55,592 bases of DNA from an uncultured Clostridia bacterium. GTDB lineage: Bacteria; Bacillota; Clostridia; TANB77; CAG-508. The notes under the pieces are model-generated. The model did no database searches, was not told the DNA's origin, and saw only the letters and a program-made list of their open reading frames with translations. Shown piece after piece: positions 49,958 to 54,393 of the stretch. A program made the position numbers and the translations under genes. How positions within the stretch are numbered: the first letter of the stretch is position 1; the number at the start of each line of letters is the position of its first letter. The stretch covers positions 1-55,592 of the forward strand of contig CANQWH010000002.1 of the NCBI GenBank assembly GCA_947627495.1, written 5' to 3'.

Positions 49958-50956
49958 ATGTTTATACCACAAGAAATTTTATATGAAGAAAATATAAAAA
50001 ATTATGAACTGGGAAAAGAGTTATTAGAAAAATATAAAGATGTTCCAAAGCATATTATAGAAAATCATAATAACATACCAGAAATGAGAAGTAAGCAAAA
50101 CTCAGAGTTTACTAATATAAAGAAAAATTTAATAATAGGAATAAGAAAAACACATAATTTTGTACCAAACCATAAAACATCAGATTTTCTAGTGCCATAT
50201 ACATCATCAGGTTGTACGGCAATGTGCATGTATTGCTATTTAGTCTGCAATTATAATAAATGCGCATACTTAAGGTTATTTGTAAATAGAGAAGAAATGT
50301 TAGATAAGATTATAAAAACAGTAAGTAAAAGTGAAAACGAATTAACATTTGAAATAGGAAGTAATAGTGATTTAATTTTAGAAAACACAATAACAGGAAA
50401 TTTAGAATGGACAATACCAAAATTTGCAGAAAATAATAGAGGATACTTAACATTTCCAACTAAATTTGATATGGTAGAACCAATACTAAATTTAGAGCAT
50501 AAAGGAAGAGTTATTGTAAGAATGAGTGTAAATCCAGAAAAAATAATACAAAGAGTAGAATTTGGAACATCAAATTTAGAAAATAGAGTAAAAGCAATAA
50601 ATAGACTACATGTAGCAGGATATAAAGTAGGAATACTAATAGCACCAATAATTTTAATAGATGATTGGAAGAAATTATATGAAGAATTAATAAAATACCT
50701 AAAGGAAAATTTAAGTGAAGAAGTAAAAAAAGATGCTTTTTTTGAATTAATATTTATGACATATAGTTATGTTCATAAAATGATAAATCAAGATGCATTT
50801 CCAAATGCAATAAAAATATTCGATGAAAAGAAAATGACAGGAAGAGGCAGAGGAAAATATATGTATAAAGAAGAAATAAGAAAAGAGGGAGAAGAATTTT
50901 TTAGAGAAAAGATGAATGAGTATTTTCCAAATAGCAAAATAATGTATATAGTGTGA
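49958..50956 (+). CDS. splB: Spore photoproduct lyase (radical SAM)
   Basis: CTAMCMYCYL radical-SAM triad and SplB-like length and sequence. Confidence 0.85.
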   Translation: MFIPQEILYEENIKNYELGKELLEKYKDVPKHIIENHNNIPEMRSKQNSEFTNIKKNLIIGIRKTHNFVPNHKTSDFLVPYTSSGCTAMCMYCYLVCNYNKCAYLRLFVNREEMLDKIIKTVSKSENELTFEIGSNSDLILENTITGNLEWTIPKFAENNRGYLTFPTKFDMVEPILNLEHKGRVIVRMSVNPEKIIQRVEFGTSNLENRVKAINRLHVAGYKVGILIAPIILIDDWKKLYEELIKYLKENLSEEVKKDAFFELIFMTYSYVHKMINQDAFPNAIKIFDEKKMTGRGRGKYMYKEEIRKEGEEFFREKMNEYFPNSKIMYIV

Positions 50957-51020
50957 ATTATTATTAAATATGATTTGAATTGTAACACTTAAAATAATTA
51001 CAATTCAAAGCTTATATTAA

Positions 51021-51162
51021 AAAATCCGCCAAATCTCATCGAAGTTTCATATTTTTTTCTTAAGAAAAAATCAAAATGGCTACGCGGGTAATCCGTGAGC
51101 AGCAGGCTGTTTGATTATTTTCTTTCGAAAAAAATATGAAACTTCTGCGTTTGGCTACTTTG
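51021..51162 (+). repeat. Nested-palindrome family, long form, copy 2
   Basis: The core is identical to 191-230. The arms differ by the paired change GGAG/CTCC to GAAG/CTTC. Confidence 0.85.
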
Positions 51163-51193
51163 TAAATATAATCGGCGGGAAATTGTAAATTAA

Positions 51194-51218
51194 AATATTA
51201 CAAATGTTACAAAAATAT
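51194..51218 (+). promoter_or_regulatory. Conserved motif, copy 3 (AATATTACAAATGTTACAAAAATAT, spacer 2 nt shorter)
   Basis: See 4116-4142 and 36192-36218. Confidence 0.45.
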
Positions 51219-51621
51219 GAAATTTGCATTATAAATGAGAAAAGTAATTTATATGGAAACAAAAAAATGGCAGAATAAAAACAAATGTTGAAAACACATC
51301 AAAGCAAATAAAAGAGTTATATAATATTAGAAACTTTACATAAGACCTTGTATCTTCACAAACTCCAAAAAATATTGTATGTAAATGTCAATTTATGTCA
51401 AAATATGTCGAACGATTTTACTTGCCAAAGAACGAAAAATATGGTATAAAAAAGTAGATAAAATAATTTTTAAAAATCAAGGCAATTTTCTAAAAGCCTA
51501 GAAAAATTTAAATCAAAATTTCAAAAGTTTAAAAATTTTCAAAAAATTCTAGAAATTCAAAAAAAATTCCAAAAGTATTGAAGAAAGAAAAAAAATTTGT
51601 TAAAATAAAAGGAGAGATTAT

Positions 51622-52560
51622 ATGTCAAAAAAACAAGAACAATTACAAGAGAAAAAAGAAAAAATGTCATTAAAAGTAGATTATGTATTTAAAAGAGTAT
51701 TTGGCAGTAATGGCAATGAAAGTATGCTAAAAGATTTGCTAGAAGCAATACTAGAAATAAAAATAGAAGAAATAATAATACAAAATCCAGAAATACCAAG
51801 GAATATAAAAGATTCAAAAATAGGAGTATTAGATGTACGAGCAAAAGTAAATGATGAAAAGATAATTGAAATAGAAATGCAAATAAAAGATCAGAATAAT
51901 ATAGATAAGAGAAGTACACAATATTTAACAAAAATATATTCAGACCAATTGAAGGAAGGTCAAACATATATAGAAGCAAAAAAAGTAGTAGCAATAAATA
52001 TATTAAATTTTAATTATTATAAAAGAAATGCATATCATTCAATAGCAAGAATGAAATTTGAAGAAACAAAACCAGAAAAATACATAGATATGGGCTATAA
52101 AGAGGAAGATAAAATTGCAAGTGAAGATATAGAAATGCACTTTATAGAGTTACCGAAGTTTTTAAAGAAGAAACCAGATATAGAAAACAAATTAGAACAG
52201 TGGCTATGTTTAATAAGTGAAAGGGAGGAAGATGTGGAAATGATATTAGAAAAAAATAAAGAGATAAAAAAGGCAAATAGAGAAGTAGAAAAATTAAGCC
52301 AAGATGAGCAAGAGAGAGAAATATATGAATTAAGACTAAAAGCTTTAAGAGATGAAGAAAATATAAGATTAACTGGAGTAGCACAAGGAATGGCGCAAGG
52401 AATGGCACAAGGAATGAAAAAGGGAATAGCACAAGGAGCAAAAGAAAAACAAATAGAAATTGCAAAAAAATTATTAAGTAAAAAAATAAAAAGAGAAGAT
52501 ATAATAGAAGTAACAGGATTGAGCATGGAGGAAATAGAAAATTTAATAAATCACGAATAG
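51622..52560 (+). CDS. Rpn-family recombination-promoting nuclease/putative transposase (PD-(D/E)XK, YhgA-like)
   Basis: DYVFKRVFG, GVLDVRAKVNDEKIIEIEMQ, and C-terminal repeats GMAQGMAQGM. Confidence 0.75.
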   Translation: MSKKQEQLQEKKEKMSLKVDYVFKRVFGSNGNESMLKDLLEAILEIKIEEIIIQNPEIPRNIKDSKIGVLDVRAKVNDEKIIEIEMQIKDQNNIDKRSTQYLTKIYSDQLKEGQTYIEAKKVVAINILNFNYYKRNAYHSIARMKFEETKPEKYIDMGYKEEDKIASEDIEMHFIELPKFLKKKPDIENKLEQWLCLISEREEDVEMILEKNKEIKKANREVEKLSQDEQEREIYELRLKALRDEENIRLTGVAQGMAQGMAQGMKKGIAQGAKEKQIEIAKKLLSKKIKREDIIEVTGLSMEEIENLINHE

Positions 52561-52690
52561 AATTGTTAGAAAGTGGATTAGTTAGTGAAGAAATTTATAC
52601 TAAATATAAATCACCTGTGTTTGGCTACTTTGAATTAATTAATGGGTTGTGAATTGTAACGATTTTTATGTATAAGATTATATAAAATAT

Positions 52691-52785
52691 GTGATAAAAT
52701 TTGTGATTTCGTGATAAATAATGTCGATAAATTTTGTGAAAACGTGATAATTGGAAGTTGAAAAAATCATGATTTGGTGATAAAA
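52691..52785 (+). repeat. Iteron-like array of about 7 GTGATAA-type 8-mers at 8-12 nt spacing
   Basis: GTGATAAA, GTGATTTC, GTGATAAA, GTCGATAA, GTGAAAAC, GTGATAAT, GTGATAAA, read upstream of the ATPase gene. Confidence 0.55.
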
Positions 52786-52843
52786 TGGAAATATAGAATA
52801 AATTTTTATTTTAAATTTGTGTTGAAAAGGAATGATTGTTACT

Positions 52844-54196
52844 ATGAAACGAAAGATATATAATGAGTTAATTAAATGGAAAGAAAACAGTAATGGAAAA
52901 ACAGCAATATTAATAGATGGTGCAAGGCGTGTAGGAAAAAGTTATATAGCGGAGTTATTTGCTAAAGAAAACTATAAATCACATATTCTAATAGATTTTT
53001 CAAAAGTACCACAAGAAATAAAAGATTTATTTGATAATTATGTAGATAATTTAGATTATTTATTCACATATTTATCAGGATATTTTGGTATAAAATTATA
53101 TGAACGAGATACAATATTTATTTTTGATGAAGTACAATTGTGTCCTAAAGCAAGAGGAGCAATAAAGCATTTAGTAGCAGATGGTAGATATGATTATATA
53201 GAAACTGGTTCTTTAATTTCAATCAAAAAGAATGTAAAAGATATTCTTATTCCATCAGAAGAACATCAAATAAAGATGTTTCCAATGGATTTTGAAGAGT
53301 TTATGTGGGCTATGGGTAATGAGACACTTATGTTATTTATAAAAAAATGTTATGAAAATAAGGAACCTATGCAACAAGCTATGCATAGAAAAGCGATGGA
53401 TTACTTTAAAGAATATTTAATTGTTGGTGGAATGCCACAAGCAGTAAAACTTTATTCTGAAACACGAGATTTTGAAAAAGTGGATGAAGAAAAGAGAGAT
53501 ATATTAAAATTATACAGAGATGATATAAGAAAATTCGCAGATGAAGTAAGCTTAAAAGTTGAGCAAATATTTGATGAAATTCCAGTGCAACTTCAAAGAC
53601 ATGAGAAAAAATTTAATTTATCATCCTTAGATGTTAATGCTAGATATAGAGAATATTATGGTTCATTCTATTGGCTTCAAGATGCGGGATTAGTTAATTT
53701 AGCATATAATACAACAGAACCTAATATTGGATTAAGACTTAATATGGATTCTAATTCTTTTAAATGTTATATGTTTGATACAGGGTTATTATTATCAATG
53801 GCCTTTGATGAAAGGGGATTAGTTAGTGAAGAAATTTATAAAAAAATATTATTTGATAAATTAAGTTTCAATGAAGGAATGATTATTGAAAATGTAGTTG
53901 CACAAATGTTAGTTAGTGCAAAGAAAAAATTGTATTTCTTCTCAAGAAATGATAGGCATGATTCTTCAGAAAAAATGGAAATAGATTTTTTAATAGCCAA
54001 AAGTAATATTACATCAAAACATAATATTACTCCAATAGAAGTAAAATCCGGAAAGAATTATACATATTCATCATTAAATAAATTTAAAAACAAGTATAAG
54101 GATTATTTGAATAAATCAATTATAATTCATCAAGAAGATTTAAAAGAAGAAAATGGAATACTATATTTACCAATATACATGACAGAATTATTATAG
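52844..54196 (+). CDS. AAA+ ATPase with a DUF4143-type C-terminal domain
   Basis: Walker A GARRVGKS, Walker B IFIFDEVQ. The architecture is typical of the AAA_14/DUF4143 family. Confidence 0.75.
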   Translation: MKRKIYNELIKWKENSNGKTAILIDGARRVGKSYIAELFAKENYKSHILIDFSKVPQEIKDLFDNYVDNLDYLFTYLSGYFGIKLYERDTIFIFDEVQLCPKARGAIKHLVADGRYDYIETGSLISIKKNVKDILIPSEEHQIKMFPMDFEEFMWAMGNETLMLFIKKCYENKEPMQQAMHRKAMDYFKEYLIVGGMPQAVKLYSETRDFEKVDEEKRDILKLYRDDIRKFADEVSLKVEQIFDEIPVQLQRHEKKFNLSSLDVNARYREYYGSFYWLQDAGLVNLAYNTTEPNIGLRLNMDSNSFKCYMFDTGLLLSMAFDERGLVSEEIYKKILFDKLSFNEGMIIENVVAQMLVSAKKKLYFFSRNDRHDSSEKMEIDFLIAKSNITSKHNITPIEVKSGKNYTYSSLNKFKNKYKDYLNKSIIIHQEDLKEENGILYLPIYMTELL

Positions 54197-54244
54197 ATTG
54201 AAATAATTGTATTAGCTCATAAGATATATACTTTTGGCACACTA

Positions 54245-54393
54245 TGCAATAAAAATATTCGATGAAAAGAAAATGGCAGGAAGAGGCAGAGAAAAATATA
54301 TGTATAAAGAACAAATTAGAAAAGAAAAAGAGAAATTTTTTAGGCAAAAGATGAATGAGTATTTTCAAAATAGCAAAATATGTATATAGTGTA
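54245..54393 (+). pseudogene. Displaced, decayed copy of the splB 3' end
   Basis: It translates as ...IFDEKKMAGRGREKYMYKEQIRKEKEKFFRQKMNEYFQNSKI and has a 1-nt deletion near the end relative to 50806-50955. Confidence 0.8.

Follow-up and report, generated by a model that had tools for sequence, protein, structure and literature searches.

This text deals with a small islet of about 3.3 kb, which lies between splB, the gene of the spore photoproduct lyase, and mfd in a 55.6-kb stretch of DNA (referred to as the window; 55,592 nucleotides, nt, of contig CANQWH010000002.1) from an uncultured, AT-rich gut Clostridia lineage. The islet holds two genes, rpn, encoding a nuclease of the Rpn family, and a gene encoding an ATPase-nuclease, and it is flanked by a duplicate of the splB terminus. 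An intact splB (49958-50956, 332 amino acids, aa; PF20903, expectation value E 6e-68) is followed by an AT-rich hairpin, a long palindromic repeat, a promoter-region-like motif, rpn (51622-52560), the ATPase-nuclease gene (52844-54196), a spacer of 47 nt (54197-54243), the second copy of the splB terminus and, finally, the upstream region and promoter of mfd (54396-54474), whose start codon is located at 54475. All genes and oriented features lie on the forward strand; the hairpin and the complete palindromic repeat are given without strand. A scan of the interval for open reading frames (ORFs) yielded rpn and the ATPase-nuclease gene as the only credible ones; a tRNA gene is not present either. 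An earlier note, made from the sequence alone, had listed a palindromic repeat, the TTACAAAA motif, an Rpn nuclease and an AAA+/DUF4143 ATPase as the contents of the interval, and all of these were confirmed, the two proteins by Pfam and, in the case of Rpn, by TIGR01784 as well.

The window is matched identically, or almost so, by five contigs which one study obtained from other samples: L081 covers positions 45612-51645, and L150-L153 set in at 52225 or 52415 and continue from there. Both sides of the islet, the one with the genuine end of splB (L081) and the one with its duplicate (L150-L153), are thus reproduced in independent assemblies of other samples. These five assemblies, all of low coverage, end within rpn (at 51645, 52225 or 52415), and the window contig is therefore the only one to span the whole interval. 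SplB orthologs with 70-93% identity are present in 80 genomes, 93% being the best match among 185,579 species genomes, and a conspecific genome was not found in scans of genomes and metagenomes (best SplB 93%, best mfd 80%). An exact-protein look-up with SplB returned the identical contig alone, which ends at the start of rpn; the look-ups with Rpn, the 454-aa ATPase ORF and the relic ORF returned no match.

The duplicated splB terminus

As the earlier note had stated, the last approximately 150 nt of splB recur downstream, and the two copies can be delimited sharply. The left member of this direct repeat, copy A (50805-50957), is the functional 3' terminus of splB, while the right member, copy A' (54244-54395), is a decaying relic of it. 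In a local alignment 139 of 153 columns are identical (90.8%), the remainder consisting of 13 mismatches and a single 1-nt deletion in A'; comparing an independent contig with the window by blastn, the pair was recovered with E 1.5e-55. Homology sets in without transition at ATGCAATAAAA and extends to the splB stop codon, the flanks on either side being unrelated. No significant similarity was detected on extending the duplicate upstream into the 47-nt spacer between the ATPase stop codon and A', and apart from the identical contigs L150-L153 of the same population, neither the window nor any of the 183 fetched loci contains a match to this spacer. Throughout the 55.6 kb, A and A' form the only long repeat of coding sequence located outside a gene. 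A' can be translated as the C-terminus of SplB up to its frameshift, and it is identical in four further samples.

The polarity of the differences was read by aligning both copies with nine orthologous termini. A and A' resemble each other (90.8%) more closely than they resemble any of the nine orthologs, to which A shows at most 83% and A' at most 79.7% identity. Of the 14 differences between them, about 9 arose in A', A having kept the ancestral state there; the frameshift belongs to these, as do replacements at residues invariant in all nine orthologs. A is the derived copy at three more sites, including the stop codon, which changed from TAA to TGA, and two sites are ambiguous. The mismatches are evenly spread and mostly represent decay of A'; a foreign arm next to an identical core is not seen. 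Since A' carries most of the derived, damaging changes and the two copies are sisters, it has to be regarded as an in-lineage duplicate left to decay. The earlier note had taken the footprint for that of one element bringing a foreign replacement terminus, with the displaced original left next to mfd, and had proposed to establish by phylogeny which of the termini is native. The sister relationship and the roughly 9 of 14 changes derived in A' speak against the foreign terminus and against the downstream copy being the displaced original, copy A representing the functional end. Judged by these alignments, A' is the product of duplication within the lineage followed by decay, and A appears to have been kept by selection.

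The splB-mfd spacer in related genomes

The comparison with relatives, suggested in the earlier note as a search for empty sites, was made at the species level. In four related species (L082, L182, L002 and L003) splB is followed by mfd with a single splB terminus, and neither rpn nor the ATPase gene is present, for which reason we regard the interval as an insertion. The spacer measures 0.4 kb in L082, where it contains the relic of a deleted DUF421 gene and a copy of the palindromic repeat, and 0.64 kb in L182 (SplB 90% identical), while an intact DUF421 gene occupies it in L002 and a gene for a 616-aa pilin-like protein in L003. Several other relatives lack splB, and different genes are found there between gatB and mfd. 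As the intervals of the relatives lack the islet and vary among each other, the islet seems to be lineage-specific and the spacer to be a hot spot of gene gain and loss. Upstream of mfd, the region 54396-54474 aligns with the corresponding regions of L082, L002 and L182, and the homology extends exactly up to the stop codon of A'. A search for identical islets elsewhere, likewise proposed in the earlier note, revealed none: as a unit, the 3.3 kb were found in one population only (L150-L153).

Two observations on this spacer may be added. In L082 (7602-7700) the start of the DUF421 gene (MEILK) is fused to its end (IYMKVNNDTKDDMF, followed by the stop), thus representing an internal-deletion relic of the gene that is intact in L002. 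The DNA between gatB and mfd is different in nearly all related species (L083-L089, L096, L182), its contents comprising RHS-toxin-like fragments, DUF4116, a 283-aa protein, pilin-like proteins and DUF421.

The ATPase-nuclease gene and its other genomic contexts

The second gene of the islet (52844-54196) encodes a protein of 450 aa as judged by homology, the ORF opening at 52832 being 454 aa long. It combines an AAA_14 domain (E 1e-21) with DUF4143 (E 3e-22), a PD-(D/E)XK nuclease domain, and corresponds over its full length to PADLOC entry PDLC04786 (E 1.4e-111, residues 4-453), a profile of the phage-defence candidate PDC-S01. The Walker A (GARRVGKS) and Walker B (IFIFDE) motifs as well as EIDF...IEVK can be read in the translation and are invariant in 30 homologs. 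PDC-S01 has been described as an ATPase plus PD-(D/E)XK defence candidate (PMC12988326), occurs very frequently in genomes from gut and rumen (PMC13356809, PMC12988326) and belongs to the commonest predicted defence genes in the literature. The protein of the window agrees with it in the full-length match, the two-domain architecture and the organisation as a single-gene system, and no sequence feature distinguishes it. A PDB sequence search gave no match, and an AlphaFold model based on a shallow alignment was poor (predicted local distance difference test, pLDDT, 48), leaving the fold unconfirmed.

Upstream of the gene (52690-52830) a promoter, TTGAAA-17-TGnTAAAAT (52758-52786), is accompanied by operator-like CGTGAKAAA repeats; the arrangement is conserved upstream of the homologs in L154, L159, L163 and L181, and promoter and repeats also precede a homolog from Segatella copri with only 57% identity. 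Two to three copies of the repeat were observed in the window (52690-52790), L154 (5010-5068), L159 (5872-5962), L181 (418-511) and the Segatella copri locus L183 (approximately 43030-43120). In some of the loci the copies are spaced by 33 nt, and their conservation ranges from Clostridia to Bacteroidota despite the 57% protein identity. They may constitute an autoregulatory operator.

Homologs with 84-90% identity occur in four other genomic contexts, namely in the gap between prfA and zip, after rimP, beside radical-SAM genes and after a surface-protein gene, all of them without Rpn. Similarity across the contexts extends from the CGTGAKAAA promoter exactly to the stop codon. The nearest non-conspecific Rpn is 73% identical; since the 84-90% ATPase homologs lack Rpn and the closest foreign Rpn is that distant, rpn and the ATPase gene do not form one travelling pair, and the earlier idea of a single integrating element carrying both is not borne out. 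The ATPase gene is rather predicted to be an independent single-gene module of the PDC-S01 type with a promoter of its own and operator-like repeats. Between prfA and zip, L154-L157 carry an ATPase gene of 88% identity as a 1.43-kb unit of promoter and gene, inserted 3 nt before the start codon of zip and bracketed by a perfect 43-nt direct repeat. This repeat (4954-4996 and 6430-6472 in L154) consists of the prfA stop codon and terminator hairpin and abuts both ends of the unit. In one further case (L159) the homolog adjoins a gene for a tyrosine recombinase.

No flanking repeat was found in the rimP context. Other candidates were considered and discarded: the repeats in L164 are hairpins resembling repetitive extragenic palindromic (REP) elements, which also occur elsewhere nearby, and those in L163 belong to a three-copy paralog array of a small membrane protein. 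Many short contigs of unit length, which could have been taken as a sign of flanking repeats, were dismissed as well, short contigs being the norm in that collection, and the Segatella copri copies (first 50 kb of the record) are diverged paralogs and do not serve as a guide to the ends of the unit. P0038 and P0039 show one fixed context in dozens of samples. A scan of viral contigs revealed no relatives of the ATPase, and the homologs found on plasmids are distant (at most 57% identical).

The rpn gene

The rpn product belongs to the Rpn family of PD-(D/E)XK nucleases, with scores above the curated cut-offs for both PF12784 (E 1.6e-48) and TIGR01784 (E 1.5e-46); a PDB sequence search gave no match. 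In Escherichia coli, the RpnL/RpnS pair is a published toxin-antitoxin system acting in phage defence (Zhong et al. 2023, PMC10400941), and several of its properties recur here. The family membership (TIGR01784/PF12784) is shared, as is the combination of a constant N-terminal nuclease domain with a variable C-terminal domain: the N-terminal 200 residues of our Rpn are identical to those of P0241, while the C-terminus is different. Four-residue repeats varying in number and sequence among strains and homologs are found in both. In the window they are encoded by hypervariable 12-nt tandem repeats inside rpn (52375-52422; AQGM/KKGI), and the lengths of Rpn homologs rise in steps of 4 aa (290, 294, 298, 302, 306). 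A conserved internal Met with a Shine-Dalgarno sequence likewise has its counterpart, as the ATG of codon 207, the candidate start of an internal RpnS, is invariant in seven of seven aligned sequences and preceded by GGGAGG. Finally, rpn was gained as a single gene beside another defence gene, with neither inverted repeats nor a short target duplication. Two differences should be noted, however: our protein falls into PF12784 (PDDEXK_2), PF04754 being the branch of those E. coli proteins that have been studied, and the candidate internal start precedes the repeats by about 46 residues instead of the published 8-20 (PMC10400941). Based on these features, rpn would encode a toxic endonuclease of the RpnL/RpnS type with an internal antitoxin, both activities being putative. 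The suggestion of the earlier note that the two genes could be defence-type cargo fits the published RpnL/RpnS system (PMC10400941) and the PADLOC match to PDC-S01.

Between samples of the same population (L151 and L153), the 3.3 kb from rpn to mfd differ by only 10 substitutions, all located at 52305-52410; nine of them fall into the region of the four-residue repeats (52374-52410), where an AQGM unit has been turned into KKGM. Such a clustering fits diversifying change in the putative RpnS region.

Two further observations concern the surroundings of rpn. About 200 nt upstream of the gene lies a conserved 25-nt element with ATGTCAA repeats (51393-51417), 96% identical to L030 11091-11115, where it precedes an Rpn homolog only 37% identical as a protein. 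The rpn homolog of L030 is also located directly 3' of splB.

Repeats and small duplications inside the interval

Several repeats lie in the DNA between splB and rpn. Immediately after the splB stop codon follows an AT-rich hairpin (50961-51022), an inverted repeat with a folding energy of -12.6 kcal/mol (z -3.0), whose left arm J1 (50960-50986) resembles a segment J2 downstream of rpn (52634-52660). Next to it lies the long-form palindromic repeat P (51023-51165), which folds as a single hairpin (-51.4 kcal/mol, z -7.5), gave no Rfam match and is 97% identical to positions 142-280 of the window. P is a member of a dispersed family with copies at 138-280, 45420-45495, 45966-46012, 51023-51165 and 52602-52632, of which 45420-45495 and 45966-46012 are short forms, and with a further copy in the equivalent splB-mfd spacer of L082 (7710-7835). 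The family looks like a REP element or a miniature inverted-repeat transposable element (MITE). P is followed by the promoter-region-like TTACAAAA double motif (51191-51225), related copies of which are found at 4115-4149 and 36191-36225.

Beyond rpn, parts of this material return. The right half of P together with J (51113-51190) recurs at 52576-52660, an alignment score reached by none of 300 shuffles; the half-repeat P' with J2 (52602-52660) is a diverged duplicate of 51132-51190, and it brackets the rpn module. Between the rpn stop codon and P' sits a patch of 36 nt (52569-52604), copied from inside the ATPase gene (53810-53845; 92% identity over 36 nt and 97% over 31 nt). The locus is, as far as these copies can be read, a patchwork of short and apparently templated duplications. 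The view of a discrete element, as put forward in the earlier note, is difficult to reconcile with an interior of host-native dispersed repeats and nested partial duplications, located in a gatB-mfd spacer that is hypervariable in all relatives.

With regard to the two repeat types themselves, we observed that members of the palindromic family end in GTCCGCCAAA...TTTGGCTAC, occur in a long (about 140 nt) and a short form (50-75 nt), mostly lie just 3' of genes and often are followed by a GAATTAATT...TTGTAA motif. The ATATTACAAAAATGTTACAAAAATAT motif is conserved approximately 90 nt upstream of three unrelated genes (4115-4149, 36191-36225 and 51191-51225) and may represent a shared promoter or regulator site.

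Origin of the islet

Genomic islands at the 3' ends of tRNA, transfer-messenger RNA (tmRNA) or protein-coding genes are inserted by tyrosine or serine recombinases, and their classical footprint consists of direct repeats that end with the target gene's stop codon. The islet resembles them in its flanking repeats, which include the 3' end of the target (153 nt, 90.8%) up to the splB stop codon, in the intact state of the gene and in its absence from relatives. It differs from them in four respects, having no recombinase, no coherent element elsewhere, repeats that are sisters within the lineage and a patchwork interior. Neither a gene nor a relic of a tyrosine or serine recombinase was found between the repeats, when the ORFs as well as the non-coding stretches (the latter at E up to 1) were compared with Pfam, and the earlier statement that the islet carries no integrase thus holds. 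An inverted-repeat analysis revealed no terminal inverted repeats linking the ends of the islet, and the properties of insertion sequences and transposons are missing altogether: besides the inverted repeats, a transposase domain is lacking, and the duplication amounts to 153 nt, in place of a short one of fixed length. The sole transposase-like label in the islet is the historical name of PF12784, 'putative transposase', which PMC10400941 argues against. A compositional signal of foreign DNA is absent, the GC content of the islet being that of its flanks.

Taking these findings together, we tentatively favour, with a probability of roughly 0.45, a composite defence islet built up step by step in a hypervariable spacer, through break repair that required no integrase and generated duplications, and not a discrete integrative element. 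The modules of rpn and the ATPase gene would have arrived separately by recombination independent of an integrase, most conceivably through repair of double-strand breaks with microhomology or primer-template switching, and the resident Rpn nuclease could have provoked the breaks. In the course of repair nearby sequence would have been copied, giving rise to the 153-nt splB duplicate as the largest scar, to the half-palindrome duplicate around rpn and to the 36-nt ATPase patch; afterwards, the upstream splB copy would have remained under selection, with the downstream copy decaying since. Both the mechanism and the order of events are what we infer from the scars. We favour such stepwise insertion because recombinase, inverted repeats and recurrence of the unit are all missing, because template-switch priming is on record (PMC5350276) and because rpn genes have variable ends. 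Kingston et al. (2017, PMC5350276) showed RpnA to be a non-specific endonuclease; its products are able to act as primers for template switching and to enhance recombination independent of RecA, and a role in the assembly of islands has been suggested in the same study. Genes of the rpn type move without inverted repeats or target duplications, have variable ends and are located in defence islands (Zhong et al., PMC10400941). With illegitimate, microhomology-mediated or primer-template-switch insertion of foreign DNA, including homology-facilitated illegitimate recombination and the RecA-independent transfer stimulated by Rpn (PMC5350276), the islet shares the lack of a dedicated recombinase, the irregular ends, local templated duplications, filler patches and the gene of a non-specific endonuclease on the spot, while the flanking duplication of 153 nt is no described standard outcome of such insertions.

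Several further points weigh against this explanation. Between copy A and the ATPase module lie 1.7 kb, which is awkward for one simple event, and additional steps are needed, as the homology to L082 suggests that part of this DNA may be ancestral to the spacer. A clean flanking duplication occurs in only two of the five contexts of the ATPase gene (L154 and the window); the case for recurrence is weak, given that paralogs account for the repeats in L163 and REP-like hairpins for those in L164, and that no repeat flanks the gene next to rimP. The putative defence function of both genes is derived from family membership, and the PDC-S01 family, with no solved structure and a predicted defence role only, is experimentally unvalidated. 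Finally, a conspecific genome lacking the islet was absent from the collections searched, the nearest relatives being other species (SplB 86-93%); for want of a conspecific empty site the comparison is possible only at the species level, and the pre-insertion sequence and the microhomologies at the junctions cannot be read.

Among the alternatives, insertion of the Campbell type deserves consideration, although we regard it as unlikely. A circle from a close relative, carrying the cargo together with a splB terminus, would have been integrated by a single homologous crossover and without a dedicated recombinase. A crossover of this kind predicts direct repeats of the homologous segment around the insert, as observed, and would agree with A and A' belonging to one lineage, while the perfect 43-nt repeat of L154 would fit the re-integration of a circle excised between the repeats. 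The model, however, requires a donor with the cargo already beside splB, which merely moves the question back, as well as a circle junction exactly at 50805/54244; neither a donor arrangement nor a circular form was seen, 43 nt are short for a RecA-mediated crossover, and the other small duplications in the islet are not explained. Very improbable, in our opinion, is the model of the earlier note, that is, a site-specific element at the splB 3' end with a replacement terminus and attachment sites (attL/attR), whose recombinase was lost or acted in trans. The island-like repeats ending at the target stop codon and the tyrosine recombinase gene adjoining the ATPase homolog in L159 are in its favour, but neither a recombinase gene nor its relic is left between the repeats, the 3.3-kb unit has no counterpart elsewhere and its genes have separate histories; moreover, the even distribution of mismatches, the host-native repeats and nested duplications of the interior, and a GC content equal to that of the flanks all run counter to it. 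That the Rpn nuclease mediated the event, the third option of the earlier note, is possible.

More doubtful still appears a scenario in which the ATPase gene itself is a minimal mobile cassette of promoter and ORF, generating long target duplications of variable size, with Rpn and the palindromes inserted later. The similarity that reaches from the promoter repeats exactly to the stop codon, the presence of 84-90% identical homologs in five genomic contexts, the PD-(D/E)XK nuclease domain of the protein and the perfect 43-nt repeat immediately at either end of the L154-L157 unit (compared to about 150 nt in the window) could be explained in this way. Conservation of promoter and ORF is equally expected from selection on any gene, though, and the repeat is seen in only two of five contexts, the site is fixed within species in dozens of samples, and copy A does not abut the unit in the window. 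We know of no mechanism which links the PDC-S01-type ATPase family to transposition. An assembly artefact, finally, can hardly be credited. The contig would have been mis-joined inside rpn between population variants, and the two splB termini would not truly lie 3.4 kb apart; the five low-coverage assemblies breaking inside rpn, none of which independently spans 51645-52225, speak for it. The breaks, however, coincide with the hypervariable repeats of rpn and find their explanation there, A' stands beside mfd in four independent assemblies whatever the join, and a mis-join is unlikely since the adjacency of splB and mfd is conserved in four related species.

The locus bears on the transfer of single defence genes, for instance rpn and the very abundant PDC-S01, from one genome to another, a subject on which published work notes only that rpn genes lack transposon-like ends. 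As a small defence islet lying in a variable spacer, it adds one case to a type already known, and its recombinase-free scar is unusually easy to read. This scar is dated and readable, consisting of a 153-nt in-lineage duplication, nested duplications and a templated patch, beside Rpn and with no recombinase. Together with the 43-nt case of L154, it provides a lead towards recombinase-free, duplication-generating insertion of PDC-S01 and rpn genes. A generalisation, according to which single-gene defence cassettes enter their sites by template-switch repair that duplicates the target, Rpn supplying the breaks and no recombinase being involved, is distinctly improbable in our estimation; the proposed target duplications are 43 nt beside prfA (L154) and 153 nt of splB (window). 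If it were true in general, long and variable target duplications would mark an undescribed route of defence-gene spread.

Other observations

In L150 (2061-5453) mfd was called as two ORFs of 677 and 437 aa, whereas the other samples contain one ORF of 1130 aa; the split is probably a sequencing error caused by low coverage. Elsewhere in the window, three tandem repeats of 300 nt, up to 100% identical, lie inside an ORF of 866 aa (37245-38525), and two paralogous genes of the Clp/AAA type (12186-13555 and 18422-19806) share blocks of 70-80% identity.

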